A stretch of DNA of 64,000 bases, from the NCBI RefSeq assembly GCF_050920415.1, contig NZ_CP169309.1, one strand, 5' to 3'. Under the pieces are notes generated by a model, which was not told where the DNA came from, searched no databases, and was given only the letters and a program-made list of their open reading frames with translations. This document shows positions 1,053 through 31,591 of this stretch, piece after piece. The position numbers were made by a program, and so were the translations under genes. Position 1 is the first letter of the stretch. Each line of letters opens with the position of its first letter. The stretch is from Escherichia coli (GTDB lineage: Bacteria; Pseudomonadota; Gammaproteobacteria; Enterobacterales; Enterobacteriaceae).

Positions 1053-1057
1053 GGGAT

Positions 1058-1756: not shown

Positions 1757-2085
1757 CAGTTCACCACCTGTTCAAACTCTGCGCTGAACTCAACACGCAG
1801 CATACTGACCCGCGACGACCATTTTGCGCAGGTCACCTTTATCTGCCGCCACTCATAAGGCGGCGTCCACAGAAAGGATTTCCAGCCCCCGTGCTCTTCC
1901 AGAAACGACTCCAGTACCGTGGCCTCCTCACGGGGGACAGAAAGCGTCACGCTGTACGTTTTCAGGTTGGCATTCAGCCCGGCAGGCGCTCGCTGAGAAT
2001 AGCCATCACCAAAGCGCACCTTTCTTACAGAAGGGACCGAAGCCACATCCATACCGGGTTTCACTTTCCAGCGGAAGGTCTTCAT
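1756..2085 (-). CDS. M: minor tail protein M (lambda gpM-like)
   Basis: Track ORF 109 aa MKTFRWKVKPGMDVASVPSVRKVRFGDGYSQRAPAGL...; abuts L and H. Confidence 0.9.
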   Translation of the reverse strand: MKTFRWKVKPGMDVASVPSVRKVRFGDGYSQRAPAGLNANLKTYSVTLSVPREEATVLESFLEEHGGWKSFLWTPPYEWRQIKVTCAKWSSRVSMLRVEFSAEFEQVVN

Positions 2086-4643
2086 CGTCCACCTCCGGAG
2101 AACAGGCCACCATCACGCATCTGTGTCTGAATTTCATCACGGGCACCCTTGCGGGCCATGTCATACACCGCCTTCAGAGCAGCCGGACCTATCTGCCCGT
2201 TCGTGCCGTCGTTGTTAATCACCACATGGTTATTCTGCTCAAACGTCCCGGACGCCTGCGACCGGCTGTCTGCCATGCTGCCCGGTGTACCGACATAACC
2301 GCCGGTGGCATAGCCGCGCATCAGCCGGTAAAGATTCCCCACGCCAATCCGGCTGGTTGCCTCCTTCGTGAAGACAAACTCACCACGGTGAACAATCCCC
2401 GCTGGCTCATATTTGCCGCCGGTTCCCGTAAATCCTCCGGTTGCAAAATGGAATTTCGCCGCAGCGGCCTGAATGGCTGTACCGCCTGACGCGGATGCGC
2501 CGCCACCAACAGCCCCGCCAATGGCGCTGCCGATACTCCCGACAATCCCCACCATTGCCTGCTTAAGCAGAATTTCTGTCATCATGGACAGCACGGAACG
2601 GGTGAAGCTGCGCCAGTTCTGCTCACTGCCGGTCAGCATCGCTGCCATATTCTGTGCAATACCATCAAAGGTCTGCGTGGCTGCACTTTTTACCTGCGAC
2701 ATACTGTCCGTGGCGCTCTCTTCCCACTCACTCCAGCCGGACTTCAGGCCTGCCATCCAGCTCCCGCGAAGCTGGTCTTCAGCCGCCCAGGTCTTTTTCT
2801 GCTCTGACATGACGTTATTCAGCGCCAGCGGATTATCGCCATACTGTTCCTTCAGGCGCTGTTCCGTGGCTTCCCGTTCTGCCGGCCGGTCAGTCAGCCC
2901 CCGGCTTTTCGCATCAATGGCGGCCCGTTTTGCCCGTTGCTGCTGTGCGAATTTATCCGCCTGCTGCGCCAGCGCGTTCAGGCGCTCCTGATACGTAACC
3001 TTGTCGCCAAGTGCAGCCAGCTGGCGTTTGTACTCCAGCGTCTCATCTTTATGCGCCAGCAGGGATTTCTCCTGTGCGGACAGCTGGCGACGTTGTGCCG
3101 CCTCCTCCAGTACCGCGAACTGACTTTCTGCCTTCCACAAATCCCGGCGCTGCTGGCTGATTTTCTCATTTGCTCCGGCATGCTTCTCCAGCGTCCGGAG
3201 TTCTGCCTGAAGCGTCAGCAGGGCAGCATGAGCACTGTCTTCCTGACGATCGCCCGCAGACACCTTCACGCCGGACTGTTTCGGCTTTTTCAGCGTCGCT
3301 TCATAATCCTTTTTCGCCGCCGCCATCAGCGTGTTGTAATCCGCCTGCAGGATTTTCCCGTCTTTCAGTGCCTTGTTCAGTTCTTCCTGACGGGCGGTAT
3401 ATTTCTCCAGCGGCGTCTGCAGCCGTTCGTAAGCCTTCTGCGCCTCTTCGGTATATTTCAGCCGTGACGCTTCGGTATCGCTCTGCTGCTGCGCATTTTT
3501 GTCCTGTTGAGTCTGCTGCTCAGCCTTCTTTCGGGCGGCTTCAAGCGCAAGACGGGCCTTTTCACGATCATCCCAGTAACGCGCCCGCGCTTCATCGTTA
3601 ACAAAATAATCATCCTTGCGCAGATTCCAGATGTCGTCTGCTTTCTTAAACGCAGCCTCTGCCTTAATCAGCATCTCCTGCGCGGTATCAGGACGACCAA
3701 TATCCAGCACCGCATCCCACATGGATTTGAAGGCCCGCGCAGTCCTGTCTGCCCAGGTCTCCAGCGTGCCCATGTTCTCTTTCAGGCGGCGGGTCTGGTC
3801 ATCAAACCCTTTCGTTGCGGCCTCGTTCGCCGCCTGCAATGCCCCGGCTTCATCGCCGGAACGCTGCAACTGAGCAACATACGCAATCTGCTCCGCCGTC
3901 ACGTTATGGAACTGGCGTGCCATCGCCGTCAGCCCCGACGTCGGGTCTGTGGTCAGCTTCCCGAAGGCTTCAGCGACCTTGTCCACCTCCACGCCGGATG
4001 CAGAGGAGAAACGCGCCACACTCTGGCTGATGGACGCAATCTGAGCCTCACCGCTTACCCCCGCCTTAACCAGTGCGCTGAGTGACTCGCTGGTCTGGTT
4101 AAACGTCAGCCCTGCCGCCTGCCCGGCTCTGGACAGGACCAGCATGCGATCTGCCGTCAGACCCGACTGATTGCCGGAAAGGACCAGCGTTTTGTTGAAA
4201 TCGGACAGGGTTGAGTTGCCCTGATACCAGGCATACGCCAGCGCACCGGTCGCCACCGCCAGCGAGGTGGCCCCCACCATCGGCAGGGTGATCGCACCGG
4301 CAAGCCCCCTGAACATGGGGATCATCCCGCCGAAGGAGTCCTTCACCTGCCCCCCCTGTTGCAGCAGGATCAGCCACGGACTTTGCCCGCCTGCAAGCTG
4401 CGTGGCCACGTCGGTGAACTGTGCAGGCAGCATACGCATGGCGGCTTTATACTGCCCGACGGAAATCCCCGCTTTCTGTGCAGCCAGCGCCTGTCGGCTC
4501 AGCGACTGTTCAACGACTGCCGCTGTTTTTTTCGCATCACTTTCCGTACCGGAAAAATGACGCCTGACTCTGGCCATCTGCTCGTCAAATCTGGCCGCAT
4601 CCAGACTTAAATCAACGACCAGATCGCCTACCGGTTCAGCCAT
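2082..4643 (-). CDS. H: tail tape measure protein (lambda gpH-like)
   Basis: Track ORF 853 aa MAEPVGDLVVDLSLDAARFDEQMARVRRHFSG...; Ala/Gln-rich coiled-coil body with a Gly-rich C-terminal region. Confidence 0.95.
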   Translation of the reverse strand: MAEPVGDLVVDLSLDAARFDEQMARVRRHFSGTESDAKKTAAVVEQSLSRQALAAQKAGISVGQYKAAMRMLPAQFTDVATQLAGGQSPWLILLQQGGQVKDSFGGMIPMFRGLAGAITLPMVGATSLAVATGALAYAWYQGNSTLSDFNKTLVLSGNQSGLTADRMLVLSRAGQAAGLTFNQTSESLSALVKAGVSGEAQIASISQSVARFSSASGVEVDKVAEAFGKLTTDPTSGLTAMARQFHNVTAEQIAYVAQLQRSGDEAGALQAANEAATKGFDDQTRRLKENMGTLETWADRTARAFKSMWDAVLDIGRPDTAQEMLIKAEAAFKKADDIWNLRKDDYFVNDEARARYWDDREKARLALEAARKKAEQQTQQDKNAQQQSDTEASRLKYTEEAQKAYERLQTPLEKYTARQEELNKALKDGKILQADYNTLMAAAKKDYEATLKKPKQSGVKVSAGDRQEDSAHAALLTLQAELRTLEKHAGANEKISQQRRDLWKAESQFAVLEEAAQRRQLSAQEKSLLAHKDETLEYKRQLAALGDKVTYQERLNALAQQADKFAQQQRAKRAAIDAKSRGLTDRPAEREATEQRLKEQYGDNPLALNNVMSEQKKTWAAEDQLRGSWMAGLKSGWSEWEESATDSMSQVKSAATQTFDGIAQNMAAMLTGSEQNWRSFTRSVLSMMTEILLKQAMVGIVGSIGSAIGGAVGGGASASGGTAIQAAAAKFHFATGGFTGTGGKYEPAGIVHRGEFVFTKEATSRIGVGNLYRLMRGYATGGYVGTPGSMADSRSQASGTFEQNNHVVINNDGTNGQIGPAALKAVYDMARKGARDEIQTQMRDGGLFSGGGR

Positions 4644-4685
4644 ACCGGACTCCTCCTGCGATCCCTTCTGATACTGTCATCAGCA

Positions 4686-5069
4686 TTACGTCATCTCCGT
4701 CATGTCCGCCACATCCGGGGAAGCGGGGATAACTTCATTCCCGTCCGGGCCAAAGCGGACACCTCCGGCAAGCCCTGCCGCTTTCTGCATCAGCACATCA
4801 TCTTCAGGCTCTTCGTCAGCCTCGCGCCGGTTCAGCAGACTGAAATCCAGCGGATGCATATCCGGATCGCTGAAAAACAGGCTGAGCACGGTGTACGTCA
4901 GCCCGGAAAAGTGCATATCCAGCAGAACATCATGAAAATAATGGGTACTGTAAAAGCGGTGCCAGTCGGCATACTCCGTGGATGACATCCCGGCAAGCAT
5001 GGCACGCCAGTCAGGTCGCCCCATCTCACGCGCCAGTTTCAGGGCAAAACTCAGCTCACCGTCGAACAC
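4686..5069 (-). CDS. T: tail assembly chaperone T-frame segment (partner of G in the G-T fusion); C-terminally truncated relative to lambda T
   Basis: Track ORF 127 aa ...FDGELSFALKLAREMGRPDWRAMLAGMSSTEYADWHRFYSTHYFHDVLL...; ends ...DMTEMT* 43 nt upstream of the H start instead of overlapping it. Confidence 0.75.
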   Translation of the reverse strand: MFDGELSFALKLAREMGRPDWRAMLAGMSSTEYADWHRFYSTHYFHDVLLDMHFSGLTYTVLSLFFSDPDMHPLDFSLLNRREADEEPEDDVLMQKAAGLAGGVRFGPDGNEVIPASPDVADMTEMT

Positions 5070-5472
5070 TTTCCCGCAGAAACAGGCTCTGCGGGCCCGG
5101 CGTCCTCTGTCTGTTCAGGGCATTATTCACCACAAACTCATACATACCAGACAGCCGGTACACCACGTTTTCAGCATGAGAAATTGCCTCCGTGGGCCAG
5201 GTGGTAAGCACTTCCTGCTCAATCTGTTTAACGGCTTCATTCATGGACGGCAGCTTTGTCTTCTGCGGATGGTTATGCCACAGGGACATCGCCACCAGAA
5301 ACGCGCCGGTTCTGATGGCGTCTTCCACAGTAAACTTCCGGTTGCTGTCTGACTCCGCCTGTTCTGCCTGCCGTTTCATCAGGGCGAGATGCTCAATGCG
5401 CTGCAGGGCTGACAGTTCAGAAAGCGTGACGGTCACACCGTTATGTTCAAATGATTCGGTTTTCAGGAACAT
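5056..5472 (-). CDS. G: tail assembly chaperone G (lambda gpG-like) with frame-changed C-terminus
   Basis: Track ORF 138 aa MFLKTESFEHNGVTVTLSELSALQRIEHLALMKRQAEQ... ending ...VVNNALNRQRTPGPQSLFLRESVRR; slippery heptamer GGGAAAG at 5069-5075 (minus strand). Confidence 0.8.
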   Translation of the reverse strand: MFLKTESFEHNGVTVTLSELSALQRIEHLALMKRQAEQAESDSNRKFTVEDAIRTGAFLVAMSLWHNHPQKTKLPSMNEAVKQIEQEVLTTWPTEAISHAENVVYRLSGMYEFVVNNALNRQRTPGPQSLFLRESVRR

Positions 5473-5487
5473 CGCTGACTCTCCGGA

Positions 5488-6227
5488 TTAACTGTCGGTG
5501 ACAGTGATTTCTGCAACCGCAGCAAGTTCACCATTACCGGATAAAACCGGAATGTTGACCTTACCTGCAGCAACGCCTTTCACGGTGATGGTCATACCAC
5601 TGACCGACACGGTGGCTTTTGTTTTATCCGCTGACACCGCACGGAAGCTCTTGTCAGTTGCGCCCTCCGGCTGGAATGCCACGGTCAGCGTGGTGCTCTG
5701 CCCTTTCACCACCGAGGAGCTGGCAGGCGTCACGGTCATACCGGTTGCCGCTGTTACCGTGCTGCGATTTCTGCCATTGACGGACGGCCCACATTGGTGA
5801 CCTTCACCGTACGGGTGATCACTTCCTTCGCCGTCACCGCCTTACCGATACTGCTGACCCAGCCACGGAACACATCGACCGTGCCGTTCGGGAAGCGGAT
5901 TTTATAGGCACGGGTATCACCTTCATTAAACCACGCCAGCAGCGCCTGCTGCCCCTGCTCTCCGGGCATCCACGCCAGCGTGAAGCTGGTATCTCCGGCG
6001 GATTTCTGCCCCTGCCCGGTCGCGGTCCAGTCCGCATCTTCATCATCGAGATAACTGTCGTCATAGGACTCAGCGGTCAGTTCGCCGGGCGTCAGGTCTT
6101 TAACTTTAGCCAGACGCGACCAGTCAACGTCTGAAAGCGGGTTCGCATAAGGGTCGCCGCTCCCGTTATAAACCCACAGGGTGGTCCCGGCACCTTTCAC
6201 CGGTATTGCTGGATTTGGTACAGGCAT
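5488..6227 (-). pseudogene. V: major tail tube protein V (lambda gpV-like) split by a single-base frameshift into a tube-domain ORF (5754-6227) and an Ig-like C-terminal domain ORF (5488-5739)
   Basis: ORF 5754-6257 contains [20 protein letters not shown]...[11 protein letters not shown]; ORF 5488-5739 ([26 protein letters not shown]...ITVTDS) is in a different frame; the two are contiguous in lambda V. Confidence 0.75.
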
Positions 6228-6234
6228 ATCGTCC

Positions 6235-6630
6235 TCACATTTCATAGGTAATGACATAAGTCAGATCGGCAGAACTCCACAGGCCCGCATCATCGTCGCG
6301 CCGGTAGTCATAGCCACTGGCCACCATACTGGTGATCAAATCTGACAGTGCCGGGATATCGCTCATCACCGGATAAATCCGGGACTCCATCCACGCATCC
6401 AGCTCTGAATCCGGCACCTGAGCAGGCAGGAAAACTTCGATATGCAGTTCCGCCTGCCAGGTATCGCTGTCCAGCTCTTCGCCCGTGTATTCAGCGCCGG
6501 TGAGATAAACGGCAACTGCCGGAAAATCCGCCTCATCAAAAACAGCGGGGCGACCATCAAAAAACGTCGCCCCGGTGTCATGCTTCTCCAGTGCATCCAG
6601 TACGGCTGCACGGAGTTCAGTATGTTTCAT
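6235..6630 (-). CDS. U: tail terminator protein U (lambda gpU-like)
   Basis: Track ORF 131 aa [31 protein letters not shown]... Confidence 0.9.
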
Positions 6631-7205
6631 CGCTTTATTACCATCCTCAGTTGATGCTGCAGCGCATAGCCCAGCTCTTTCGGAAGACGCTCACGCCGTA
6701 TCCGCTCAATATTCTGTTTAAACGCCGTGGTCAGCGGCACCGCCATCGGGATTTTCACCACATCAATGGGGTAACGGTTTTTCCCGGCCACACGCTGCAT
6801 GACATGCCAGCGGCCATTTTTCAGTTGCTGAATAAACGCGCCGGGAATACGACGGTTTCCCACCACAAGCACGCTGCCGCCACCTTTCAGGGCTGAACGC
6901 TGCCCCTTTTTACGACGCCTGCGTCGGGACAGGACAATCCGCGCGTTACCCAGCTTTATTACGGGCAAATCCCCCCGGTTAACCTTGATTCTGGCCTGCG
7001 GATTTTTGACCGTGGCCCTTTTCAGCCTGGCCCTTTCCTTTACCAGTTTCCGGCGTACCTTTGTCTCACGGGCAACCTGTGACGCCGACTGCGATATCGC
7101 GGATGAAGCAACGCGGTTAATGGCCATTGCGGCAGCACCGGGCACCGCCGTTCTGCTGATACGGCTGAGGTTTTCAACGGCCTGCTCAAGACCTTTTATG
7201 GCCAT
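6627..7205 (-). CDS. Z: tail completion protein Z (lambda gpZ-like)
   Basis: Track ORF 192 aa MAIKGLEQAVENLSRISRTAVPGAAAMAINRV... Confidence 0.9.
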   Translation of the reverse strand: MAIKGLEQAVENLSRISRTAVPGAAAMAINRVASSAISQSASQVARETKVRRKLVKERARLKRATVKNPQARIKVNRGDLPVIKLGNARIVLSRRRRRKKGQRSALKGGGSVLVVGNRRIPGAFIQQLKNGRWHVMQRVAGKNRYPIDVVKIPMAVPLTTAFKQNIERIRRERLPKELGYALQHQLRMVIKR

Positions 7206-7216
7206 ACATCCCCCTT

Positions 7217-7570
7217 TCAGCGGCGACGGTTAACGGCAGGCGGTACGCCCCGCCCAAGCCAGAGATGACAGCTTCCGCCATCATCCGGCGAAATCCGGTC
7301 TATCCAGAAGTTTTCCTCACCGATGGTCAGCGTGTCGCCGCGCCGCAGCTGCCGCACATCATCAGTCCGGACAAACATGGACGGGCTGGAGCCTTCAACG
7401 CGCACGCCCGGTCCGGCATAGCTGATATTTTCAGGGTCATCAAAAACACCACGTATCACAGCACCGGACTGCTCACCGGATGTCATGGTGGCTGACGTTC
7501 CCATGTACCCGCGTATCGTTTCATCGGCGCGGGCAATGGCAGCATCGAACAGGTTATCGAAATCAGCCAC
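7217..7570 (-). CDS. FII: head-tail connector protein FII (lambda gpFII-like)
   Basis: Track ORF 117 aa MADFDNLFDAAIARADETIRGYMGTSATMTSGEQSG... Confidence 0.9.
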   Translation of the reverse strand: MADFDNLFDAAIARADETIRGYMGTSATMTSGEQSGAVIRGVFDDPENISYAGPGVRVEGSSPSMFVRTDDVRQLRRGDTLTIGEENFWIDRISPDDGGSCHLWLGRGVPPAVNRRR

Positions 7571-7581
7571 AGCGCCTCCCG

Positions 7582-7977
7582 TTATTGCATTCTGGCCAGG
7601 CCGCGCTCTGTCATTTCGGCTGCCACACCGGCAGAGACACGGAACGCCGTTCCCGGCAGCACAAATGCCACAGGTTCATCCCGCGTGGCGTGAAGTGCAT
7701 CAGTATGCAGCGTCACCAGTGCCACAACCGTGACCAGATCAGCCGTATCAGTCACGGTATCCGGCTGCGCTGATACCACCTCATTTTCATGTCCGGTCAG
7801 CGCATTTTCCGGGCTGACAGATGTGTCCTGACCGGCAGCGTCATCCGTGTCATCAAGCTCCTCTTCCAGCTCTGCCACACGGAGCGCCAGTTCTTCTTTC
7901 GTCCCCGTCAGGCTGACATCACGGTTCAGTTGTTCACCCAGCGAGCGGAGACGGGCAATCAGTTCATCTTTCGTCAT
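7582..7977 (-). CDS. FI: DNA packaging protein FI (lambda gpFI-like)
   Basis: Track ORF 7582-8016; start chosen at internal Met (MTKDELIARLRSLGEQLNRDVSLTG...), giving 131 aa. Confidence 0.85.
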   Translation of the reverse strand: MTKDELIARLRSLGEQLNRDVSLTGTKEELALRVAELEEELDDTDDAAGQDTSVSPENALTGHENEVVSAQPDTVTDTADLVTVVALVTLHTDALHATRDEPVAFVLPGTAFRVSAGVAAEMTERGLARMQ

Positions 7978-8018
7978 GGACTCCTCCACAGAGAGAAAAT
8001 GGCCCCGAAGGGCCATGA

Positions 8019-9044
8019 TTACGCCAGTTGTACGGACACGAACTCATCAGGGTCAGCCAGCAGCATCAGCGGTGCTGACTGAATCATGGTGAACTCACGC
8101 GCCGGATCGCCGGTGGTCACCCAGTTTTTCGGGTAACGGGCAGAGGCGTTAATGCCTTCGCGCTGTGCGTCCGCATCCTGAATGCAGCCATAGGTGCGCA
8201 GACCGCGTGCCTGAGTGTTACCCAGCACCATCGTGTTGTCCGGCAGGAAGTTCTTTTTGACGCCGTTTTCCACGTACTGTCCGGAATACACGACGATGGC
8301 CACATCGCCATACATCCCCTTATAGGACACCGCTTTGCCCAGGTCTTTCACCGCTGTCTCCAGCTCGGAATTAGAGCCACGACGGGTATCCAGCTTCTCC
8401 CTGACGGCTTTGAAGGAACGGAACAGCGCCCAGCCTTTCGGATCGAACACGATGATATTCACCACACCGCTGGCGTTCAGCGCGTAGGCTTCGATATCGT
8501 CGGTCGGGTCATACGTGGACTTGTCACGCTTGCTCCACTCCGTGCCGCCGGACTGCGTGATGTTATTCTCCTCACTGCGGCCCATATCCACCTCAACCGG
8601 ATCGAAGGCTTCACCGGTCATGGTGTATTTGCCCTTAAGCACGGCAGAAACTGCCTGCATCTCTTCGACCTGAGCAATGGCCAGCTCTTCGTCACGCATG
8701 TTCTGCATGATGATGCGACGGCGGCGGTAAGCCGGGTCCGCCAGATTCTGCGGATCTTCATCCGGCAGGCGACGCAGGGTCATCTGCGGATTCACTTCAT
8801 GCTTCGGCTTGACATATCCCGGCGTAAATTCAGAGGTGGAGCCGCCACGGGAACGGATAACCTCACCGGAAACAATCGGCGAAACGTACAGCGCCATGTT
8901 TACCAGTCCCGGAATTTGTGAGAGATAGACTTTCTCCGTGGTGAAGGGATAGCTCTCACGGAAAAAGAGACGCAGAAACAGCGGATCAAACTTAAATTTC
9001 TGCTCATTTGCCGCCAGCAGTTGGGCGGTTGTGTACATCGACAT
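8019..9044 (-). CDS. E: major capsid protein E (lambda gpE-like)
   Basis: Track ORF 341 aa MSMYTTAQLLAANEQKFKFDPLFLRLFFRESYPF... Confidence 0.95.
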   Translation of the reverse strand: MSMYTTAQLLAANEQKFKFDPLFLRLFFRESYPFTTEKVYLSQIPGLVNMALYVSPIVSGEVIRSRGGSTSEFTPGYVKPKHEVNPQMTLRRLPDEDPQNLADPAYRRRRIIMQNMRDEELAIAQVEEMQAVSAVLKGKYTMTGEAFDPVEVDMGRSEENNITQSGGTEWSKRDKSTYDPTDDIEAYALNASGVVNIIVFDPKGWALFRSFKAVREKLDTRRGSNSELETAVKDLGKAVSYKGMYGDVAIVVYSGQYVENGVKKNFLPDNTMVLGNTQARGLRTYGCIQDADAQREGINASARYPKNWVTTGDPAREFTMIQSAPLMLLADPDEFVSVQLA

Positions 9045-9100
9045 AAAAAAATCCCGTAAAAAAAAGCCGCACAGGCGGCCTTTAGTGATGAAGGGTAAAG

Positions 9101-9433
9101 TTAAACGATGCTGATTGCCGTTCCGGCAAACGCGGTCCGTTTTTTCGTCTCGTCGCTGGCAGCCTCCGGCCAGAGCACATCCTCATAACGGAACGTGCCG
9201 GACTTGTAGAACGTCAGCGTGGTGCTGGTCTGGTCAGCAGCAACCGCAAGAATGCCAACGGCAGCACCGTCGGTGGTGCCATCCCACGCAACCAGCTTAC
9301 GGCTGGAGGTGTCCAGCATCAGCGGGGTCATTGCAGGCGCTTTCGCACTCAATCCGCCGGGCGCGGTTGCGGTATGAGCCGGGTCACTGTTGCCCAGCGG
9401 CTGGTAATGGGTAAAGGTTTCTTTGCTCGTCAT
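9101..9433 (-). CDS. D: head decoration protein D (lambda gpD-like)
   Basis: Track ORF 9101-9439; start at second Met gives 110 aa [27 protein letters not shown]... Confidence 0.9.
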
Positions 9434-9442
9434 AAACATCCC

Positions 9443-10742
9443 TTACACTGGTGTGTTCAGCAAATCGTTAACGGCATCAGATGCCGGGTTACCTGCAGCC
9501 AGCGGTGCCGGTGCCCCCTGCATCAGACGATCCAGCGCAGTGTCACTGCGCGCCTGTGCACTCTGTGGTGCTGCGGCCAGAATGCGGCGGGCCGTTTCCA
9601 CGGTCATACCGGGGGTTTCTGCCAGCACGCGTGCCTGTTCTTCGCGTCCGTGAGCCTCCTCACAGTTGAGGATCCCCATAATGCGACTGTTTTCTGCCGC
9701 AACCGCTGCGGTGATCTGCGCGTTCACGTCCGGCTGCGCCGCGCTGGCGTTTTCGCCCTCCGTCGCTGGCACCACGTCAGTAACGTCAGCCTGCGAAGCA
9801 GTGGCTGAAACAGTTGTTGATTGAGTCTCTTTGGTCATTCGCCCTCCTGAGAGACGGGATTTACGTGCATCCAGTGCATCACGCATGACGGTGATCGCAT
9901 CGGTGCTGTTAACAAGTTCATCAGCCAGTCCGGCATCAATGGCCTCCTGACCGCTGTACACTGCAGCCTCGGTATCCAGCACAGCCTGCACGGACAGGCC
10001 GGTATATGCCGACACCTTCTGCGCAAACATCTGGCGGGTTGCGTCCATCCGGGACTGCAGTGTCTCCCGGACGTCATCCGGAAGATGGCTGTAGGGGTTG
10101 CCATCCACCTTATGGCTGCCGCTGTAAATCAGCGTGATTTCCACACCCTGTTTCTCCAGCGCAGCACCGTAATTACTGTGAGCCATCATGACGCCGATGG
10201 AGCCTGTCCGGGCGGTCTGCGTGACCAGACGCCGGGAGGCGGCACTGGCAAGCAGCTGACCTGCACTGCAGTTCATGTCGTTGGCCAGCGCCCATACCGG
10301 TTTTATGTCACGCACACGGGCGATGATGTCAGCGCAGTCAAATGCCCCCGCCACCATCCCGCCGGGCGTGTCCATATCGAGCAGAATGCCGTCCACCATC
10401 GGATCGCTGGCAGCCTGTTGCAGACGGGCGATAATGCCGTTGTAACCGGTCATCCCCGAATACGGCTGCAGCGCCCGCGTCCGGCTGACCAGCGTGCCGG
10501 AAACCGGCAGCACGGCGATGCCGTTCATGACCTGATAACTGCGGGCCTGTCGTGGTCCGTCATCATCACCGGATAACGCCAGCGTCGCGGGTGTCTCCGG
10601 GGCAGTCAGGCTGTCACCGGACACCGCATCTGTCAGGCGGCTGATCCCAAGCTGGCCTGCAAGCGCACAAAAGAAAACCCGCGCATAGGCGGGTTCAAGC
10701 ATCAGCGGCTCATTAAAGGCCATACTGGCAATATGCGGGAGA

Positions 10743-10762
<20 letters not shown>
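9443..10762 (-). CDS. C: head maturation protease/scaffold C (lambda gpC-like; Nu3 scaffold expected nested in-frame in its 3' part)
   Basis: Track ORF 9443-10897; product from the in-frame GTG at ~10760-10762 is 439 aa (VTAELRNLPHIASMAFNEPLMLEPAYARVFF...), overlapping the portal gene end as in lambda. Confidence 0.85.
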
Positions 10763-14443
<3,681 letters not shown>

Positions 14444-14469
<26 letters not shown>

Positions 14470-14989
14470 TCAGCAACCCCGGTATCAGTTCATCCAGCGC
14501 GGCTGCTTTGTTCATGGCTTTGATGATATCCCGTTTCAGGAAATCAACATGTCGGTTTTCCAGTTCCGGAAAACGCCGCTGCACCGACAGGGGGATCCCG
14601 TCGAGAATACTGGCAATTTCACCTGCGATCCGCGACAGCACGAAAGTACAGAATGCGGTTTCCACCACTTCAGCGGAGTCTCTGGCATTTTTCAGCTCCT
14701 GTGCGTCGGCCTGCGCACGCGTAAGTCGATGGCGTTCGTACTCAATAGTCCCTGGCTGGAGATCTGTCTCGCTGGCCTGCCGCAGTTCTTCAACTTCCCG
14801 GCGCAGCTTTTCGTTCTCAATTTCAGCATCCCTTTCGGCATACCATTTTATGACGGCGGCAGAATCATAAAGCACCTCATTACCCTTGCCACCGCCTCGC
14901 AGAACGGGCATTCCCTGCTCCTGCCAGTTCTGAATGGTACGGATACTCGCACCGAAAATATCAGCCAGCTGCTTTTTGTTGACTTCCAT
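14444..14989 (-). CDS. nu1: terminase small subunit Nu1 (lambda gpNu1-like)
   Basis: Track ORF 181 aa MEVNKKQLADIFGASIRTIQNWQEQGMPVLRGGGKGNE... (winged-HTH N-terminus). Confidence 0.95.
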
Positions 14990-14999
14990 TGTTCATTCC

Positions 15000-15200
15000 A
15001 CGGACAAAAACAGAGAAAGGAAACGACAGAGGCCAAAAAGCTCGCTTTCAGCACCTGTCGTTTCCTTTCTTTTCAGAGGGTATTTTAAATAAAAACATTA
15101 AGTTATGACGAAGAAGAACGGAAACGCCTTAAACCGGAAAATTTTCATAAATAGCGAAACCCCGCGAGGTCGCCGCCCCGTAACCTGTCGGATCGCCGGA
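15000..15200 (-). other. cos: cos site (cosB-cosN-cosQ); 12-nt cohesive-end sequence GGGCGGCGACCT present as reverse complement at ~15167-15178
   Basis: Reverse complement of 15001-15200 matches the lambda cos region as I recall it (GGGCGGCGACCTCGCGGG...TTTATGAAAATTTTCCGGTTTAAGGCGTTTCC...; other side ...CGGGTCCTTTCCGGCGATCCGACAGGTTACG); sits immediately upstream of Nu1. Confidence 0.8.
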
Positions 15201-15377
15201 AAGGACCCGCAAAATGATAATAATTATCATCTACATGTCACAACGTGCATCTACGCCATCAAACCACGTCAAATAATCAATTATGACGCAGGTATCGTAT
15301 TAATTGATCCGCATCAACTTAACGTAAAAACAACTTCAGACAATACAAATCAGCGACACTGAATACGGGGCAACCTC

Positions 15378-15572
15378 ATGTCAACGAAGAACAGAACCCG
15401 CAGAACAACAACCCGCAACATCCGCTTTCCTAACCAAATGATTGAACAAATTAACATCGCTCTTGATCAAAAAGGGTCCGGGAATTTCTCAGCCTGGGTC
15501 ATTGAAGCCTGCCGTCGGAGGCTAACGTCAGAAAAGAGAGCATATACATCAATTAAAAGTGATGAAGAATGA
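15378..15572 (+). CDS. ylcI: DUF3950-family small protein (DLP12 YlcI-like)
   Basis: Track ORF 64 aa MSTKNRTRRTTTRNIRFPNQMIEQINIALDQKGSGNFSAWVIEACRRRL...; recalled as YlcI-like, ribbon-helix-helix-like. Confidence 0.6.
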   Translation: MSTKNRTRRTTTRNIRFPNQMIEQINIALDQKGSGNFSAWVIEACRRRLTSEKRAYTSIKSDEE

Positions 15573-15736
15573 ACATCCCGCGTTCTTCCCTCCGAACAGG
15601 ACGATATTGTAAATTCACTTAATTACGAGGGCATTGCAGTAATTGAGTTGCAGTTTTACCACTTTCCTGACAGTGACAGACTGCGTGTTGGCTCTGTCAC
15701 AGGTTAAGTAGTTTGAATGATTAGCAGTTATGGTGA

Positions 15737-15943
15737 TCAGTCAACCACCAGGGAATAATCCTTCATATTATTATCGTGCTTCACCAACGCTGCCTCAATT
15801 GCCCTGAATGCTTCCAGAGACACCTTATGTTCTATACATGCAATTACAACATCAGGGTAACTCATAGAAATGGTGCTATTAAGCATATTTTTTACACGAA
15901 TCAGATCCACGGAGGGATCATCAGCAGATTGTTCTTTATTCAT
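15737..15943 (-). CDS. ybcW: hypothetical protein (DLP12 YbcW-like)
   Basis: Track ORF 68 aa [40 protein letters not shown]... Confidence 0.6.
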
Positions 15944-16186
15944 TTTGTCGCTCCATGCGCTTGCTCTTCATCTAGCGGTTAAAATATTACTTCAAATCTT
16001 TCTGTATGAAGATTTGAGCACGTTGGCCTTACATACATCTGTCGGTTGTATTTCCCTCCAGAATGCCAGCAGGACCGCACTTTGTTACACAACCAATACT
16101 ATTAATTGAAAACATTCCTAATATTTGACATAAATCATCAACAAAACACAAAGAGGTCAGACCAGATTGAAACGATAAAAACGATA

Positions 16187-16639
16187 ATGCAAACTACGCG
16201 CCCTCGTATCACATGGAAGGTTTTACCAATGGCTCAGGTTGCCATTTTTAAAGAAATATTCGATCAAGTGCGAAAAGATTTAAACTGTGAATTGTTTTAT
16301 TCTGAACTAAAACGTCACAATGTCTCACATTATATTTACTATCTAGCCACAGATAATATTCACATTGTGTTAGAAAACGATAACACTGTGTTAATAAAAG
16401 GACTTAAAAAGGTTGTAAATGTTAAATTCTCAAGAAATACGCATCTTATAGAAACGTCCTTTGATAGGTTGAAATCAAGAGAAATCACATTTCAGCAATA
16501 CAGGGAAAATCTTGCTAAAGCAGGAGTTTTCCGATGGGTTACAAATATCCACGAACATAAAAGATATTACTATACCTTTGATAATTCATTACTATTTACT
16601 GAGAGCATTCAGAACACTACACAAATCTTTCCACGCTAA
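16187..16639 (+). CDS. ybcV: DUF1398-family protein (DLP12 YbcV-like)
   Basis: Track ORF 16106-16639; start chosen at internal Met [32 protein letters not shown]... Confidence 0.6.
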
Positions 16640-16929
16640 ATCATAACGTCCGGTTTCTTCCGTGTCAGCACCGGGGCGTTGGCATAATGCAATACGTGTA
16701 CGCGCTAAACCCTGTGTGCATCGTTTTTAATTATTCCCGGACACTCCCGCAGAGAAGTTCCCCGTCAGGGCTGTGGACATAGTTAATCCGGGAATACAAT
16801 GACGATTCATCGCACCTGACATACATTAATAAATATTAACAATATGAAATTTCAACTCATTGTTTAGGGTTTGTTTAATTTTCTACACATACGATTCTGC
16901 GAACTTCAAAAAGCATCGGGAATAACACC

Positions 16930-17223
16930 ATGAAAAAAATGCTACTCGCTACTGCGCTGGCCCTGCTTATTACAGGATGTGCTCAACAGACGTTTACTGT
17001 TCAAAACAAACAGACAGCAGTAGCACCAAAGGAAACCATCACCCATCATTTCTTCGTTTCTGGAATTGGGCAGAAGAAAACTGTCGATGCAGCCAAAATT
17101 TGTGGCGGCGCAGAAAATGTTGTTAAAACAGAAACCCAGCAAACATTCGTAAATGGATTGCTCGGTTTTATTACTTTAGGCATTTATACTCCGCTGGAAG
17201 CGCGTGTGTATTGCTCAAAATAA
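16930..17223 (+). CDS. bor: Bor lipoprotein (serum-resistance lysogenic conversion protein)
   Basis: Track ORF 97 aa MKKMLLATALALLITGCAQQTFTVQNKQTAVAPKET...; lipobox LITGC; opposite strand to late genes as in lambda. Confidence 0.85.
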   Translation: MKKMLLATALALLITGCAQQTFTVQNKQTAVAPKETITHHFFVSGIGQKKTVDAAKICGGAENVVKTETQQTFVNGLLGFITLGIYTPLEARVYCSK

Positions 17224-17254
17224 TTGCATGAGTTGCCCATCGATATGGTCAGCT

Positions 17255-17716
17255 CTATCTGCACTGCTCATTAATATACTTCTGGGTTCCTTCCAGTTGT
17301 TTTTGCATAGTGATCAGCCTCTCTCTGAGGGTGAAATAATCCCGTTCAGCGGTGTCTGCCAGTCGGGGGGAGGCTGCATTATCCACGCCGGAGGCGGTGG
17401 TGGCTTCACGCACTGACTGACAGACTGCTTTGATGTGCAACCGACGACGACCAGCGGCAACATCATCACGCAGAGCATCATTTTCAGCTTTCGCATCAGC
17501 TAACTCCTTCGTGTATTTTGCATCGAGCGCAGCAACATCACGCTGACGCATCTGCATGTCAGTAATTGCCGCGTTCGCCAGCTTCAGTTCTCTGGCATTT
17601 TTGTCGCGCTGGGCTTTGTAGGTAATGGCGTTATCACGGTAATGATTAACAGCCCATGACAGGCAGACGATGATGCAGATAACCAGAGCGGAGATAATCG
17701 CGGTTACTCTGTTCAT
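17255..17716 (-). CDS. Rz: spanin inner-membrane subunit Rz (i-spanin)
   Basis: Track ORF 17255-17728; contains [39 protein letters not shown]...; lambda Rz-like. Confidence 0.9.
17314..17496 (-). CDS. Rz1: spanin outer-membrane lipoprotein subunit Rz1 (o-spanin), embedded in Rz in the +1 frame
   Basis: Track ORF 60 aa [46 protein letters not shown]...; lipobox VVGC and Pro-rich segment. Confidence 0.85.
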
Positions 17717-18210
17717 TGCTGACCCCACAAACAGATTTCACGCTCAATCTCACGACGAGTCATGAGACCTTTCCATTGCTTACCGCCAGCATATGTCCAG
17801 CGACGTAGCTGATCACATGCGCCTTTGATATCGCCCTGGTTTATTTTGCGAAGAAGCGTCGATGTTCTGAAATTGCCAGCACCCACGTTGTAAACGAATG
17901 AGTAAAGAGCGCCGCGCATTGTTTCCGGTATATCGACTTTGATGTACGGGTTAATTTGTCTGGCGACCGTGGCAAGGTCTTTATTCAGGAGGGCTTTGCA
18001 TTCTGCTTTGGTATACGTTTTACCGAGCATGATGTCTTTTCCTGTATGCCCGTGACATACAGTCCATACACCAACAATATCTTTGTATGGTATGTAGCTG
18101 ACACCTTCCAGACCATCGTTACCACTTGGGCCAGTGATTAACACTGATGCTATAGCAATTGCTCCGCCACCAATAGCAGCAGCAACGGCTTTTCGTAATG
18201 ATGGAGGCAT
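17713..18210 (-). CDS. R: SAR endolysin (phage-21 R / DLP12 RrrD-type lysozyme)
   Basis: Track ORF 165 aa [44 protein letters not shown]...; N-terminal Gly/Ala-rich signal-arrest-release helix followed by a T4-lysozyme-like catalytic region. Confidence 0.85.
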
Positions 18211-18425
18211 TATTCACCTCTCGCAGCCTTGCGCTTATCTTCTTTAATCTTGAAATAAAGGTTTGTCAGGTACGTCAGCAGGCCAAATACCAGGCTACCC
18301 AGCACACCTATTGCTGCCCACTGTGAGGGCGTGACTTTATCGAGCAGCTGTAAAAACCAGTAACCGGCACTACCTGCTGAGGTGCCATAGGCGACACCCG
18401 TTGTTAACTTATCCATGGATTTCAT
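18210..18425 (-). CDS. S: pinholin (phage-21 S21 / DLP12 EssD-type holin)
   Basis: Track ORF 71 aa [71 protein letters not shown]; two TM segments and a charged C-terminus. Confidence 0.8.
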
Positions 18426-18532
18426 AACCCCACCTCGCAGACAAAGCGGGTGTAAATTGAGGGAATACTACGAAACGTAACAGACTCGGAGTCAGTGAAT
18501 AACTCAGGTATTGGGTTATCAGCTAATATCGA

Positions 18533-18998: not shown

Positions 18999-20096
18999 AT
19001 GAAAAAATTAACAGTGGCAATTTCTGCTGTAGCTGCATCAGTACTGATGGCGATGTCTGCTCAGGCAGCTGAAATTTATAATAAAGACAGTAACAAGCTG
19101 GATCTGTACGGGAAAGTTAATGCTAAGCACTACTTCTCCTCTAATGATGCAGATGATGGTGATACTACTTATGCCCGTCTTGGCTTCAAAGGTGAAACCC
19201 AAATCAACGATCAGCTGACTGGTTTCGGTCAGTGGGAATATGAATTCAAAGGCAACCGCGCTGAATCTCAAGGTTCCTCCAAAGACAAAACCCGTCTTGC
19301 ATTTGCAGGCCTGAAATTCGGTGACTACGGCTCAATCGATTACGGCCGTAACTACGGTGTAGCATACGACATCGGTGCGTGGACTGACGTTCTGCCAGAA
19401 TTCGGTGGCGATACCTGGACCCAAACAGATGTGTTCATGACTGGTCGTACCACTGGTGTTGCAACCTATCGTAACAACGACTTCTTTGGTCTGGTTGATG
19501 GTCTGAACTTTGCTGCTCAGTACCAAGGCAAAAACGATCGTAGCGATTTCGATAACTACACTGAAGGTAACGGTGATGGCTTCGGTTTCTCTGCTACCTA
19601 TGAATACGAAGGATTCGGTATCGGTGCAACTTATGCGAAATCTGATCGTACCGACACTCAAGTTAATGCAGGGAAAGTTCTTCCTGAAGTATTTGCTTCC
19701 GGTAAAAATGCAGAAGTTTGGGCCGCAGGTCTGAAATATGACGCTAACAACATTTACCTGGCCACTACCTATTCTGAAACCCAGAATATGACTGTATTTG
19801 CTGATCACTTCGTTGCTAATAAAGCTCAAAACTTCGAAGCTGTTGCACAATATCAGTTCGATTTCGGTCTGCGTCCGTCCGTTGCTTACCTGCAATCTAA
19901 AGGTAAGGATCTTGGAGTATGGGGCGATCAGGACTTAGTCAAATATGTTGATGTAGGTGCAACCTATTACTTCAACAAAAATATGTCTACTTTCGTTGAT
20001 TACAAAATCAACCTGCTTGACAAAAATGACTTCACTAAAGCACTCGGTGTAAGCACTGATGACATCGTTGCTGTAGGTCTGGTTTACCAGTTCTAA
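18999..20096 (+). CDS. nmpC: outer membrane porin (NmpC/Lc-type general porin), apparently intact
   Basis: Track ORF 365 aa [46 protein letters not shown]...VGLVYQF; signal peptide and C-terminal aromatic residue typical of OmpC-family porins; lies between Q and S on the opposite strand as in DLP12/PA-2. Confidence 0.9.
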
Positions 20097-22159: not shown

Positions 22160-22193
22160 GCTTCACCTCCGCAGAGGTCAAACGCTGGATGCA

Positions 22194-22278
22194 AAAAATC
22201 GCAGGTGCATCTCTGCATCTGTGAAGGGAGAAGAGAGTTTGGATTGTATGTGCGCATAAACGTCCCCGTTTAGCGCAG
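22194..22278. repeat. ~85-bp direct repeat, copy A (partner at 24128-24211, ~93% identical)
   Basis: AAAAATCGCAGGTGCATCTCTGCATCTGTGAAGGGAGAAGAGAGTTTGGATTGTATGTGCGCATAAACGTCCCCGTTTAGCGCA; contains imperfect hairpin GCGCATAAACG-TCCCC-GTTTAGCGC. Confidence 0.75.
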
Positions 22279-24060: not shown

Positions 24061-24127
24061 ATCACCTTTAGCCGCCAGACGAATAGAGACTCCCAATTCT
24101 GGCTGTCGAAGTAAAACACCGAATGTA

Positions 24128-24211
24128 AAAAATCGTAGGTGCATTTCTGCATCTGTGAATGGAGATGAGAGTTTGGATTGTGTGTGCGCATAAACGTCCC
24201 CGTTTAGCGCA
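24128..24211. repeat. ~85-bp direct repeat, copy B (partner at 22194-22278)
   Basis: AAAAATCGTAGGTGCATTTCTGCATCTGTGAATGGAGATGAGAGTTTGGATTGTGTGTGCGCATAAACGTCCCCGTTTAGCGCA; about 6 mismatches versus copy A. Confidence 0.75.
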
Positions 24212-24519: not shown

Positions 24520-26022
24520 ATGACTCAAACTCCTCTATTACTTGCAATCATATTTTTATTGGTTGTTCTTGTTCTTTATATAGCTGCAATCAAACGCATC
24601 AAAAAAATACAATTAGAATTAAGTGATAGCAATCAAAAAAATGAAGAATACAAATCTCGCTTTGCAGATTATTTTAATGTAGAAGAAGAATGTAAGAAGC
24701 TTATTGAGAAAACAGAGCAAGAATGCTCCATAATAAAAGAAGAATCCCTAAAAGTAAAAGAAAATGCCAATAATGAACTAACAAACACCATTGAAAAAAT
24801 GGATGGTATCAATAAACAAATCCAAGAGCTAAGAAGAACTTATAAAGAGAAGAAAGAAATATATGATAAACTAGTAAGGCAAATTTCTATTTATTCAGAA
24901 GATGTTGAGCTAGCCGAACTAGGATTTTACGAACCTCATTTTAATTTTGAAGATTCAGAGCAATTTAAAAACAAAATAAAATCCATCAGGGATGAACAGA
25001 AATTAATGCTGCGGGATAAAACCCACTCTGGCGCAGTATATTGTACAACCCAATGGACTGTTGAAGGCTCTCGAGCAGAGGGTAAAAAAATGACAGACAG
25101 AAATATCAGGCTAACTACTAGAGCATTTAATAATGAATGTGATGCTGCAATTAGCAATTGCACGTGGAAAAACATCACTAAAATGGAAGAACGCATCACA
25201 AAGGCATTTGAGGCCATAAATAAACTAAACGAGCAAAATCACATATATATAAACACTAAATACCTCAATAAAAAACTTGAGGAATTGTGGCTTACCCATG
25301 AATATCGTGAGCAAAAACAGAAAGAAAAAGAAGAACAGGCAGAAATAAGGGCACAAATGAGAGAGGAGGAGCGTGCACAACGAGAAATAGAAAAGGCCAT
25401 GCAAGACGCAGAGGCAGAAGAGCGCCGTTATAAAAAAGCAATTGAAGCTGCAAGAAAGGAAATGGAAAAAGTTACTGGTGACATGAAGCAGCGCCTCGAA
25501 AATCGCATTGCCGAACTAGAACAGAGTTTGTCGCAGGCTGAATCAAAGCATCAAAGAGCATTATCCATGGCACAACAAACCAAACAAGGTCATGTTTATA
25601 TTATTTCGAACATAGGTTCTTTTGGGGAGAATGTTTATAAAATAGGCATGACACGACGTCTTGATCCGCAAGACCGTGTAAATGAGCTCGGTGATGCATC
25701 TGTTCCTTTTATTTTTGATGTACATGCCATGATTTATTCGGAGGACGCTCCATCATTAGAAAAAAAACTACATGATGTCTTCGATAAAAAGAGAGTCAAT
25801 CTTGTAAATCGTAGAAAAGAGTTTTTCTATGTTACTCTGGATGAGATCAAAGAAGCTGTTAAAAAACACTCTGATTCAGAAATTGAATTTATTGAGACAG
25901 CAGTCGCAAAAGACTTTAATGAGTCATTGGCTATTCGTAATCATGAAAATAAAAAAAGTGACAACAGCAACTCATCAATTATACCTGAGCGAAAAACCCC
26001 AGAGTTTGCAGATGCAATTTAA
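24520..26022 (+). CDS. membrane-anchored coiled-coil protein with C-terminal GIY-YIG/T5orf172-like domain (DUF4041-like architecture); candidate defence moron
   Basis: Track ORF 500 aa: N-terminal TM helix (LLLAIIFLLVVLVLYIAAI), ~300 residues Lys/Glu-rich coiled coil, then GHVYIISNIGSFGENVYKIGMTRRLDPQDRVNELG...EKKLHDVF...RKEFFYV; RBS AAGGAA; strongly AT-rich; opposite strand to flanking phage genes. Confidence 0.8.
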   Translation: MTQTPLLLAIIFLLVVLVLYIAAIKRIKKIQLELSDSNQKNEEYKSRFADYFNVEEECKKLIEKTEQECSIIKEESLKVKENANNELTNTIEKMDGINKQIQELRRTYKEKKEIYDKLVRQISIYSEDVELAELGFYEPHFNFEDSEQFKNKIKSIRDEQKLMLRDKTHSGAVYCTTQWTVEGSRAEGKKMTDRNIRLTTRAFNNECDAAISNCTWKNITKMEERITKAFEAINKLNEQNHIYINTKYLNKKLEELWLTHEYREQKQKEKEEQAEIRAQMREEERAQREIEKAMQDAEAEERRYKKAIEAARKEMEKVTGDMKQRLENRIAELEQSLSQAESKHQRALSMAQQTKQGHVYIISNIGSFGENVYKIGMTRRLDPQDRVNELGDASVPFIFDVHAMIYSEDAPSLEKKLHDVFDKKRVNLVNRRKEFFYVTLDEIKEAVKKHSDSEIEFIETAVAKDFNESLAIRNHENKKSDNSNSSIIPERKTPEFADAI

Positions 26023-26270: not shown

Positions 26271-26573
26271 TCACAGCAAGTTTAAGTTCATATCTCCATA
26301 CACTGCCAACACTCGTTTCATCGCGGCACTCTGGCGACACTCCTTGAAAATCAGATTCGTGCTCACCTTTCCTTCCCGTTCTTCCCTGGTAGCGAACCGG
26401 TAATACACCGTTCGCCAGACCTTACCATCAACGACCAAGATTCCTGCCCGTGCCATTTTAGCCGCAGCCTGATTTATACTGGTTACTGTTGCGCCTGTTA
26501 CCGCAGCAACGTCCTGCGCACAGAAGCTCTTATGCGTCCCCAGGTAATGAATAATTGCCTCTTTGCCCGTCAT
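26271..26573 (-). CDS. ren: Ren protein (lambda Ren-like)
   Basis: Track ORF 100 aa MTGKEAIIHYLGTHKSFCAQDVAAVTGATVTSINQAAAKMARAGILVVDGKVW... Confidence 0.85.
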   Translation of the reverse strand: MTGKEAIIHYLGTHKSFCAQDVAAVTGATVTSINQAAAKMARAGILVVDGKVWRTVYYRFATREEREGKVSTNLIFKECRQSAAMKRVLAVYGDMNLNLL

Positions 26574-27271
26574 ACAGTTGCTCCTTTCAGTCCGAACTTC
26601 GCTTTGATTTCTGCGATCTTCGCCAGAGCCTGTGCACGATTTAGAGGTCTACCGCCCATGACAGGAAGTTGTTTTACTGGTTCAGGTATCGCCTCACCAC
26701 GGTTAATTCGCGCGGTCATACAAGTCAGTTCATCGGCAGCCTTGCGCCGTAATTCCGCATCAGTAAGCGCATTGGCCCGCATGTTCTGATACAGGTTGGT
26801 AACCAGCCAGTAGTGCGCGTTTGATTTCCACGGATAAGACTCTGCATCTGGATACAGGCCACGTTTCCGGCAATACTCGTAAACCATATCAACCAGCTCG
26901 CTGGCGTTTGGCAGCCCGGCGGTAACGGATGCTTCTTCCCGGCACCAGGCAACAAACTGCCCGGGTGATGGCAGGAATGGTCGATTCTGCCGACGGGCTA
27001 CGCGCATTCCTGCGTCAACCTGTTCCATCGTGGTGATCCCGTTTTCCCGGAAAGCCAGAACCCACTGGCGGCGGATTTCGTTCAGTTCGTTCTGGTCCCG
27101 GTTAGCCAGGCTCGCCGGGAAAGTTGCCAGTAACTGGCTGAACACACCATTGATGATCTGCGCTACCTGTTGTACCTGCGGCTTTTCGTCGTACTGTTCC
27201 GGCATGTTGTTGGCGATCCGGCGCATCTGCTCACGGTCAAAGTTAACCATCTGTGCGGCGATGTTTTTCAT
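26570..27271 (-). CDS. P: replication protein P (DnaB helicase loader, lambda P-like)
   Basis: Track ORF 233 aa MKNIAAQMVNFDREQMRRIANNMPEQYDEKPQVQQVAQIINGVF... Confidence 0.9.
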   Translation of the reverse strand: MKNIAAQMVNFDREQMRRIANNMPEQYDEKPQVQQVAQIINGVFSQLLATFPASLANRDQNELNEIRRQWVLAFRENGITTMEQVDAGMRVARRQNRPFLPSPGQFVAWCREEASVTAGLPNASELVDMVYEYCRKRGLYPDAESYPWKSNAHYWLVTNLYQNMRANALTDAELRRKAADELTCMTARINRGEAIPEPVKQLPVMGGRPLNRAQALAKIAEIKAKFGLKGATV

Positions 27272-31214: not shown

Positions 31215-31289
31215 TCCCCTTTCCTGTTTTCCTAATCAGCCTGGCATTTCGCGGGCGATATTTTCACAGCCATTTTCAGGAGTTCAGCC

Positions 31290-31586: not shown

Positions 31587-31591
31587 AACGG

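Follow-up and report, generated by a model that had tools for sequence, protein, structure and literature searches.

A lambda-type DNA-packaging (cos) site, close to base-for-base that of lambda, in an argU prophage of Escherichia coli

The 64,000-nucleotide stretch of Escherichia coli DNA analyzed here (contig NZ_CP169309.1; hereafter the window) raises the question of whether the lambda-like cohesive-end sequence that it carries forms part of a genuine DNA-packaging (cos) site and, if so, to which packaging specificity class that site belongs. The initial annotation had proposed a cos site matching that of lambda at positions 15000 to 15200, accompanied by lambda-type terminase genes and conferring lambda-like packaging despite a non-lambda right arm. 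Judged by its sequence, the element is the cos site of a lambda-family prophage residing in the E. coli chromosome and is near base-for-base that of textbook lambda; we estimate at approximately 0.9 the probability that it represents an authentic cos of a lambda-family prophage, integrated at the tRNA-Arg gene argU and possessing the packaging specificity of lambda. The finding of a cos was thereby confirmed and is an ordinary one, the element being a textbook structure that is already known.

The 12-nucleotide (nt) cohesive end of lambda, GGGCGGCGACCT, is present as an exact and single occurrence in the window, on the minus strand at positions 15167 to 15178, and the cos site as a whole reads on that strand, a point on which the earlier description is corrected. 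The 16-bp cosN, CGGGGCGGCGACCTCG, similarly occurs once in the window and was recovered in none of 100 dinucleotide-preserving shuffles. A search allowing up to two mismatches returned 3 matches against 5 expected, and the exact 16-mer test was employed instead to assess chance; on this basis, and given the uniqueness of the 16-mer in the window, a chance match is ruled out.

For comparison with lambda, the two genome ends of J02459 were joined (positions 47903 to 48502 followed by 1 to 800), against which window positions 15778 to 14380 (minus strand) align with 26 differences across 1,400 columns (98.1% identity) and without rearrangement. Nowhere in cosN, cosB, or cosQ does this alignment across the lambda genome ends diverge substantially. 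The 7-mer GGGTCCT is present at lambda positions 48473 to 48479, which we take to be the coordinates of cosQ, presumably as defined by Wieczorek and Feiss (2001). All other subsite boundaries were adopted from papers of the Feiss laboratory (PMC9026076, PMC4856287, and PMC4669245). When compared subsite by subsite (Table 1), the sequences of cosQ, cosN, R3, the I1 fragment, R2, and R1, together with the ATG of Nu1, are all identical to those of lambda, the identity of cosN encompassing the 12-nt end and both of its CG flanks, and the proposed match of cosN, cosB, and cosQ to lambda consequently stands. The interval originally assigned to the site does enclose cosN and cosB, but it falls short of cosQ, which lies 2 to 8 bp outside it. 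All spacings within the site match those of lambda once G138 of J02459 is set aside, resequenced lambda having the same R2-R1 spacing as the window.

The anatomy of the site is likewise that of lambda. The cosQ subsite is described as a highly conserved, 7-bp packaging-termination signal (PMC4669245), and the distance from its end to the nick is 23 bp in the window and lambda alike. cosN has been defined as 12 bp flanked by a further 2 bp on each side, with 10 of its 16 positions being symmetric (PMC9026076), and the same twofold symmetry (10 of 16 positions) is present here. Placed by homology, the nicks would fall between 15179 and 15178 on the minus strand and between 15167 and 15166 on the plus strand. 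Published boundaries place I2 at approximately bp 18 to 50, with bp 65 to 90 representing the fragment of I1 that was used (PMC4856287), and R3 at bp 50 to 65, where contacts are made at bp 55 to 63, while R2 and R1 are reported to be inverted relative to each other and identical over 16 bp, the Nu1 ATG being located at bp 191 (PMC9026076). In agreement with the published arrangement, the reverse complement of R2 in the window equals R1 across 16 bp, and the ATG of Nu1, at window position 14989, corresponds to lambda bp 191. Natural variation among cos copies from IMG/VR (116 to 120 copies) delineates a functional block in which conservation of at least 90% starts at the outer edge of cosQ, being approximately 75% just beyond it, and extends via cosN and I2 to approximately bp 45; the drop beyond bp 45 is due to alternative cosB classes.

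Table 1. Features of the cos site, the packaging genes, the tail-gene deletions, and the prophage arms in the window
Feature	Window coordinates	Strand	Comparison or remark
cosQ, GGGTCCT	15202..15208	-	Identical to lambda 48473-48479
cosQ-cosN spacer, 21 bp	15181..15201	-	Lambda length; one substitution (lambda 48486 T>C)
cosN, 16 bp (12-nt cohesive end plus 2-bp CG on each side)	15165..15180	-	Identical to lambda
I2 (lambda bp 18-50), essential bent spacer between cosN and cosB	15129..15161	-	32/33 identical to lambda; length kept
R3 (lambda bp 50-65), critical TerS (gpNu1) site by homology	15114..15129	-	Identical to lambda, including core bp 55-63
I1 (lambda bp 65-90 fragment), IHF-binding/intrinsic-bend segment between R3 and R2	15089..15114	-	Identical to lambda
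R2 (lambda bp 109-124), TerS site inverted relative to R3 and R1	15055..15070	+	Identical to lambda
R1 (lambda bp 151-166), accessory TerS site	15014..15029	-	Identical to lambda
Nu1, terminase small subunit (TerS), 181 aa	14444..14989	-	179/181 identical to lambda; Pfam Phage_Nu1, E=3.9e-101
A (gpA), terminase large subunit (TerL), 641 aa	12544..14469	-	637/641 identical to lambda; Pfam GpA_ATPase and GpA_nuclease
B, portal protein (terminase-DNA docking)	10743..12344	-	Intact, lambda length; 531/534 aligned positions (533 residues plus stop codon) identical
FI, packaging chaperone	7582..7977	-	119/132 (90%) identical to lambda gpFI; one-codon in-frame deletion
V deletion	~5768	-	V truncated at ~aa 157 of 246
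G deletion, C4>C3	~5117	-	Frame changed across G/GT slippery site GGGAAAG (lambda 10109)
T deletion, GG>G	~4694	-	T terminated at aa 127 of 144
Left arm	1-15178	-	98.7% identical to lambda 15183-1
Right arm	15179-35711		Mosaic
Right arm, Rz to right end	15179-17716		98.6% identical to lambda 48502-45966
Right arm, part of O, P, ren	26291-27734		93.9% identical to lambda 40562-39119
Right arm, gam, bet, exo	31205-33983		97.3% identical to lambda 33196-30418
IntD-type integrase	34531-35694		Adjoins tRNA-Arg
tRNA-Arg(tct), argU	35710-35786		DLP12 locus

The proteins predicted to act on the site are also those of lambda, as had been proposed for the terminase genes. Nu1 differs from its lambda counterpart solely by A75T and L132I, and residues 1 to 74, which span the DNA-binding domain with its recognition helix (residues 17 to 24, RTIQNWQE) and wing (residues 31 to 39), are identical. 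Four substitutions (T151S, D184E, P231L, and I459V) distinguish gpA; as in lambda, its gene overlaps Nu1 at the 3' end of the latter. The head and packaging genes W, B, C, Nu3, D, E, FI, and FII are all intact, the product of FI being known to help Complex I bind the prohead (PMC4856287). The packaging mechanism proposed here is modeled on the identity of the site with that of lambda, the roles of the subsites being those reported previously (PMC4669245, PMC4856287, and PMC9026076). According to this model, gpA would be anchored on cosN across the bent I2 spacer and would introduce two nicks 12 bp apart, generating the 5' overhang GGGCGGCGACCT; terminase would remain on the cosB end (Complex I) and subsequently dock on the portal. 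DNA would then be translocated in the order Nu1, A, and the head and tail genes, i.e., toward lower window coordinates, until cosQ and cosN of the next cos on the concatemer trigger the terminating cut. Actual cleavage at the site is presumed on the same grounds. The site would fix the predicted ends of the virion DNA (15166/15167 and 15178/15179), the direction of packaging, and the lambda class of the argU prophage; it is further predicted that lambda-specificity helpers and cosmid systems would recognize it and that packaging modules could be exchanged with the many lambda-cos prophages that most E. coli genomes contain.

Identity of the cohesive end is not, in itself, diagnostic of packaging specificity. 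Among the IMG/VR loci (L010 to L129), 102 copies of an exact 52-mer covering cosN and I2 have enough flanking sequence to be classified; 76 of these are of the lambda Nu1/cosB type, approximately 17 precede an unrelated TerS of 169 aa (which starts VATQTEVARHL), and approximately 4 precede a TerS of the phage 21 type. At least three TerS/cosB classes are therefore located behind an identical 52-bp cosN/I2 segment, the cohesive-end module being common across packaging specificities, and a match to cosN alone does not fix specificity. The known determinants of specificity are bp 55 to 63 of R3, particularly bp 56, 58, and 59, and residues 20 and 24 of TerS (PMC4669245 and PMC9026076). In the window, R3 bp 55 to 63 and both TerS residues are those of lambda, unlike those of phage 21, and the lambda-like specificity that had been anticipated is, as far as sequence can indicate, retained: it is here fixed by the identity of cosB and Nu1 to their lambda equivalents. 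Every sequence feature by which membership can be assessed places the window in the lambda cos family, through cosN, a 7-bp cosQ at lambda spacing, and an I2 spacer of conserved length (the distance between cosN and cosB being critical) with 32 of 33 bases identical, and in the lambda specificity class, through a complex cosB of the order R3-I1-R2-R1 (with R2 inverted) carrying lambda R sequences, a winged helix-turn-helix TerS with the lambda recognition helix and wing as well as Q20 and E24, and a cognate TerL that possesses both an ATPase and an endonuclease domain and whose gene directly follows that of TerS. Lambda packaging specificity is, on these predictive grounds, well supported.

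The existence of several TerS classes behind one cosN/I2 segment does leave room for a site which has only cosN in common with lambda and whose specificity is 21-like, N15-like, or that of another TerS class. Phage 21 (X02501, gp1/gp2) is instructive in this regard, as it possesses the same 12-nt cohesive end, the same succession of I2 followed by R3-I1-R2-R1, and a TerS start codon near bp 189 to 191. Its R sequences nevertheless differ (...CGTGTCGG... in phage 21), its gp1 is only 53% identical to the Nu1 of the window, and its recognition helix reads RTIERWQS (E20 and S24) as opposed to RTIQNWQE (Q20 and E24), the discriminating residues being those indicated in the legend to Fig. 2 of PMC4669245. 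Lambda and phage 21 package each other's DNA more than 1,000-fold less efficiently than their own (PMC4669245). R3, R2, R1, and the recognition helix of Nu1 in the window are those of lambda and are clearly unlike those of phage 21. The simple cos of N15 has a single R site (R3), lacks an IHF site, and is followed by a TerS start at bp 89 (PMC9026076), whereas the window harbors three R sites and an ATG at bp 191. A 21-like or N15-like specificity is effectively refuted by the comparisons of Nu1, cosB, and phage 21, and a non-lambda specificity of any of these kinds is regarded as highly improbable.

An origin of the site in a satellite was also considered, in which a PICI-type cos would hijack the terminase of a helper phage via an Rpp protein. 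PICI cos sites do feature near-identical cosQ and cosN sequences at lambda-like spacing (PMC9026076); however, R sequences are missing from them and rppA comes next, while in the window a complete, tripartite lambda cosB leads into Nu1 and A and an entire lambda left arm of 15 kb. The combination of cosQ and cosN without R sites and then rppA is not what is found here, and this gene content refutes a PICI-type cos, which we consider next to impossible. A satellite-like element was encountered elsewhere, within the portal gene of the homologous argU prophage of strain Z0117EC0116 (locus L131, approximately 7,600 to 18,500), where it encodes, alongside an integrase and a primase, two head proteins (a major capsid protein and a head decoration protein) as well as a small terminase subunit; the element is absent from the window.

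Although all subsites and the position of the Nu1 start codon agree with the lambda J02459 cos (48473 to 48502 plus 1 to 190), and Nu1 and gpA are each 99% identical, four differences separate the window from that record in and immediately around the core: T>C at lambda 48486, A>G at 48471, T>G at bp 19, and the missing G138. The first of these (window position 15195) is located in the cosQ-cosN spacer, where the C of the window is found in at least 90% of 116 to 120 IMG/VR copies; lambda J02459 therefore carries the minority allele. The A>G change at 48471, 2 bp outside cosQ, is common to PhiR68_2, PhiR26_1, and 74% of IMG/VR copies. The absence of G138 (window position approximately 15040) renders the R2-R1 spacing 1 bp shorter than that of J02459, yet G138 is equally absent from resequenced lambda (PV340536), DE3, PhiR68_2, PhiR26_1, and an Stx1 phage. 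As every other record examined is without it, G138 is a peculiarity of J02459 and not a change of spacing, and a true difference in cosB spacing was rejected.

The T>G change at bp 19 (window position 15160), situated in I2, is the sole window-specific change in the core. On the bottom strand it converts the A4 tract at bp 19 to 22 to A3. G at this position was observed in none of 120 IMG/VR cos copies, in which T is invariant. In complete E. coli genomes, the 60-mer covering cosN and I2 was recovered at one mismatch in 4,495 of 5,426 (83%), and none of the 7,781 places in these 4,495 genomes reaches 99% identity or more to the window 60-mer, bp 19 being the only difference between that 60-mer and lambda. 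I2 is reported to be essential and strongly conserved and to possess a static bend of approximately 28 degrees, which has been attributed to the A4 tract (bp 19 to 22) together with an A4T4 tract (PMC4856287). A hypomorphic cos can accordingly be envisaged, in which the substitution weakens the I2 bend and lowers the initiation of packaging. In favor of such an effect are the essential and conserved nature of bp 18 to 50, which are proposed to act via the A4 and A4T4 bends (PMC4856287), the invariant T in natural copies with no exact counterpart of the 60-mer in E. coli genomes, and the T5 carried by phage 21 at the same tract position. The change is, however, a single substitution that leaves the spacing intact, and experimental replacement of 6 bp of I2 (I2re30-35) merely reduced function, its loss having required replacement of 33 bp (PMC4856287). 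On the plus strand, moreover, the change corresponds to a shift from A4C3 to A3C4 at a homopolymer boundary, and it may for that reason represent a base-calling error. We consider a hypomorphic cos unlikely and presume that the bp 19 change is tolerated by an otherwise lambda-type site. Beyond annotation the site has little importance, and this change in I2, if real, is the only point of possible wider use.

The closest relatives of the 241-bp core are PhiR68_2, Turner, and PhiR30_1, at 99.2 to 99.6% identity to the window, PhiR26_1, DE3, and the prophages at the DLP12 locus annotated nohD/ybcV/ybcW being further lambda-like relatives. PhiR26_1 was deposited as a phage with E. coli K-12 MG1655 listed as its host, and it shares with the window both its integration at argU and its right arm. 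Its cosB, however, represents a second common haplotype with 7 differences from that of the window, between bp 73 and 176 and mostly outside the R sites, while the cosB of the window is of the lambda haplotype. A prophage at 100% identity was present in no complete E. coli genome of the collection searched, a search with the frameshifted G' protein returned no recorded counterpart, and a literature search yielded no paper describing the PhiR/ECOR phages.

The prophage occupies the argU/DLP12 locus, as is indicated by fimZ and the sfm fimbrial operon beyond the integrase and tRNA gene. The host flank (37000 to 61900; 24.9 kb) is 100.0% identical to that of strain MFDS1022581, whose argU site is empty. 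The description of the right arm as non-lambda requires qualification: much of it is indeed without a nucleotide match to lambda (Q, the porin gene, S/R, the immunity region, and int, i.e., all but the three segments of Table 1), but it is mosaic, and the 2.5 kb that adjoin cos are 98.6% identical to lambda. As annotated in relatives, it encodes a QuuD-type Q, a porin, EssD/RrrD lysis proteins, PD-lambda-1 (DUF4041), Rha, and a different immunity region. Over its whole length, it differs from the right arm of PhiR26_1 (PV340555) by 1 base in 20.5 kb, with no indels. Its cargo includes a 500-aa DUF4041 protein (24520 to 26022, plus strand), annotated in PhiR26_1 as the anti-phage defense protein PD-lambda-1, and a 365-aa OmpD/NmpC-type porin (18999 to 20096, plus strand) encoded between Q and the lysis genes. 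Cross-matches to PhiR26_1 also uncovered a direct repeat of approximately 104 bp (22174 to 22277 and 24108 to 24211; 89% identity) which brackets a Rha-like gene and a 169-aa open reading frame, and which may have been left by the insertion of a module.

The left arm, in turn, is a fine-scale mosaic with many junctions. Its first 2,500 positions differ from lambda at 4 bases; positions 3500 to 6000 are devoid of substitutions relative to a prophage that MFDS1022581 carries at 2.53 Mb and that strain 442/2 possesses as well; and the remaining segments include some whose nearest counterpart is that of PhiR26_1 or Z0117EC0116. Such a pattern suggests repeated exchange with co-resident lambdoid prophages. 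One of its junctions coincides with the cos site: within an 89-bp interval (15107 to 15195) which contains cosN, identity to PhiR26_1 switches from approximately 100% to approximately 98.3%, the left arm being approximately 1.7% diverged. Cutting at cos creates recombinogenic ends. In addition, when DNA is packaged from tandem prophages, the left arm of one prophage becomes linked to the right arm of another, a design that has been exploited experimentally (PMC4669245). A role for cos as a recombination hotspot or arm-swapping boundary was nevertheless unsupported by linkage among 52 distinct natural haplotypes: r2 across cosN (0.028 at 100 to 200 bp and 0.054 at 200 to 300 bp) was no lower than that within the arms (0.031 and 0.068 at 100 to 200 bp; 0.027 and 0.059 at 200 to 300 bp). 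A literature search on cos as a recombinator likewise returned nothing relevant. The alignment of the identical PhiR26_1 tract stops at attL, so the other end of the tract is not informative, and the junction at cosN is treated as a coincidence, representing one junction among many.

Whether the site serves an autonomous phage depends on the tail genes, in which three private 1-bp deletions (minus strand) were identified at positions equivalent to lambda 9414 (V), 10066 (G), and 10490 (T). Neither lambda nor PhiR26_1 carries any of them, nor do strains 442/2 and Z0117EC0116. The E. coli genomes that best match this tail tract are 99.8% identical to it and comprise 1,304 bases against 1,301 in the window, so that nothing but the three deletions appears to separate the sequences over 1.3 kb. 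If they are real, the cos would be a genuine lambda-type site within an already defective prophage, in which the V, G, and T frameshifts abolish tail assembly; the site would then be of no use, or would serve to fill heads that depend on tails supplied by a co-resident lambdoid prophage. This proposal is compatible with the identification of the site as an authentic lambda-type cos and departs from it only as to whether an autonomous phage is served. It is favored by the truncation of V and T and the shifted G/GT frame, which are not shared by the relatives examined, and by the fact that the window is otherwise not prone to indels, the right arm having none relative to PhiR26_1 and the host flank being 100.0% identical to MFDS1022581 over 24.9 kb. 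On the other hand, all three deletions are confined to positions of approximately 3500 to 6000, the tract with zero substitutions relative to another prophage of the MFDS1022581 lineage. This tract is probably an exact repeat in the present genome, a situation in which polishing with short reads fails and 1-bp deletion errors of long reads persist. Two of the three deletions are, furthermore, located in short homopolymers, and three indels without any substitution in 1.1 kb would be unusual for natural decay. The deletions may, therefore, reflect real decay or assembly errors, error being as plausible as decay, and we regard a prophage that is already defective as a real prospect, if one somewhat short of an even chance. 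Even with normal cutting at its cos, the prophage may fail to produce infectious particles; neither interpretation of the deletions changes what the cos site is.

Were all four private changes real, i.e., the three deletions and the bp 19 substitution, the window would present intact heads, terminase, and remainder of cos beside fresh frameshifts in V, G, and T. This would depict a lambda-type prophage very early in decay or domestication, with an I2 mutation that weakens packaging initiation. Such a combination is doubtful; if true, the bp 19 variant would offer a naturally occurring one-base probe of I2, an element that is still poorly understood.

A further discrepancy with J02459 was noted in the left arm, where that record lacks a G at 14266 (window position approximately 918) relative to the window. 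It was rejected as a real difference and treated as a peculiarity of J02459, based on comparison with the window and on what we take to be a known correction to that record. The K reading frame is 247 aa in the window, compared with the 199 aa annotated in J02459.
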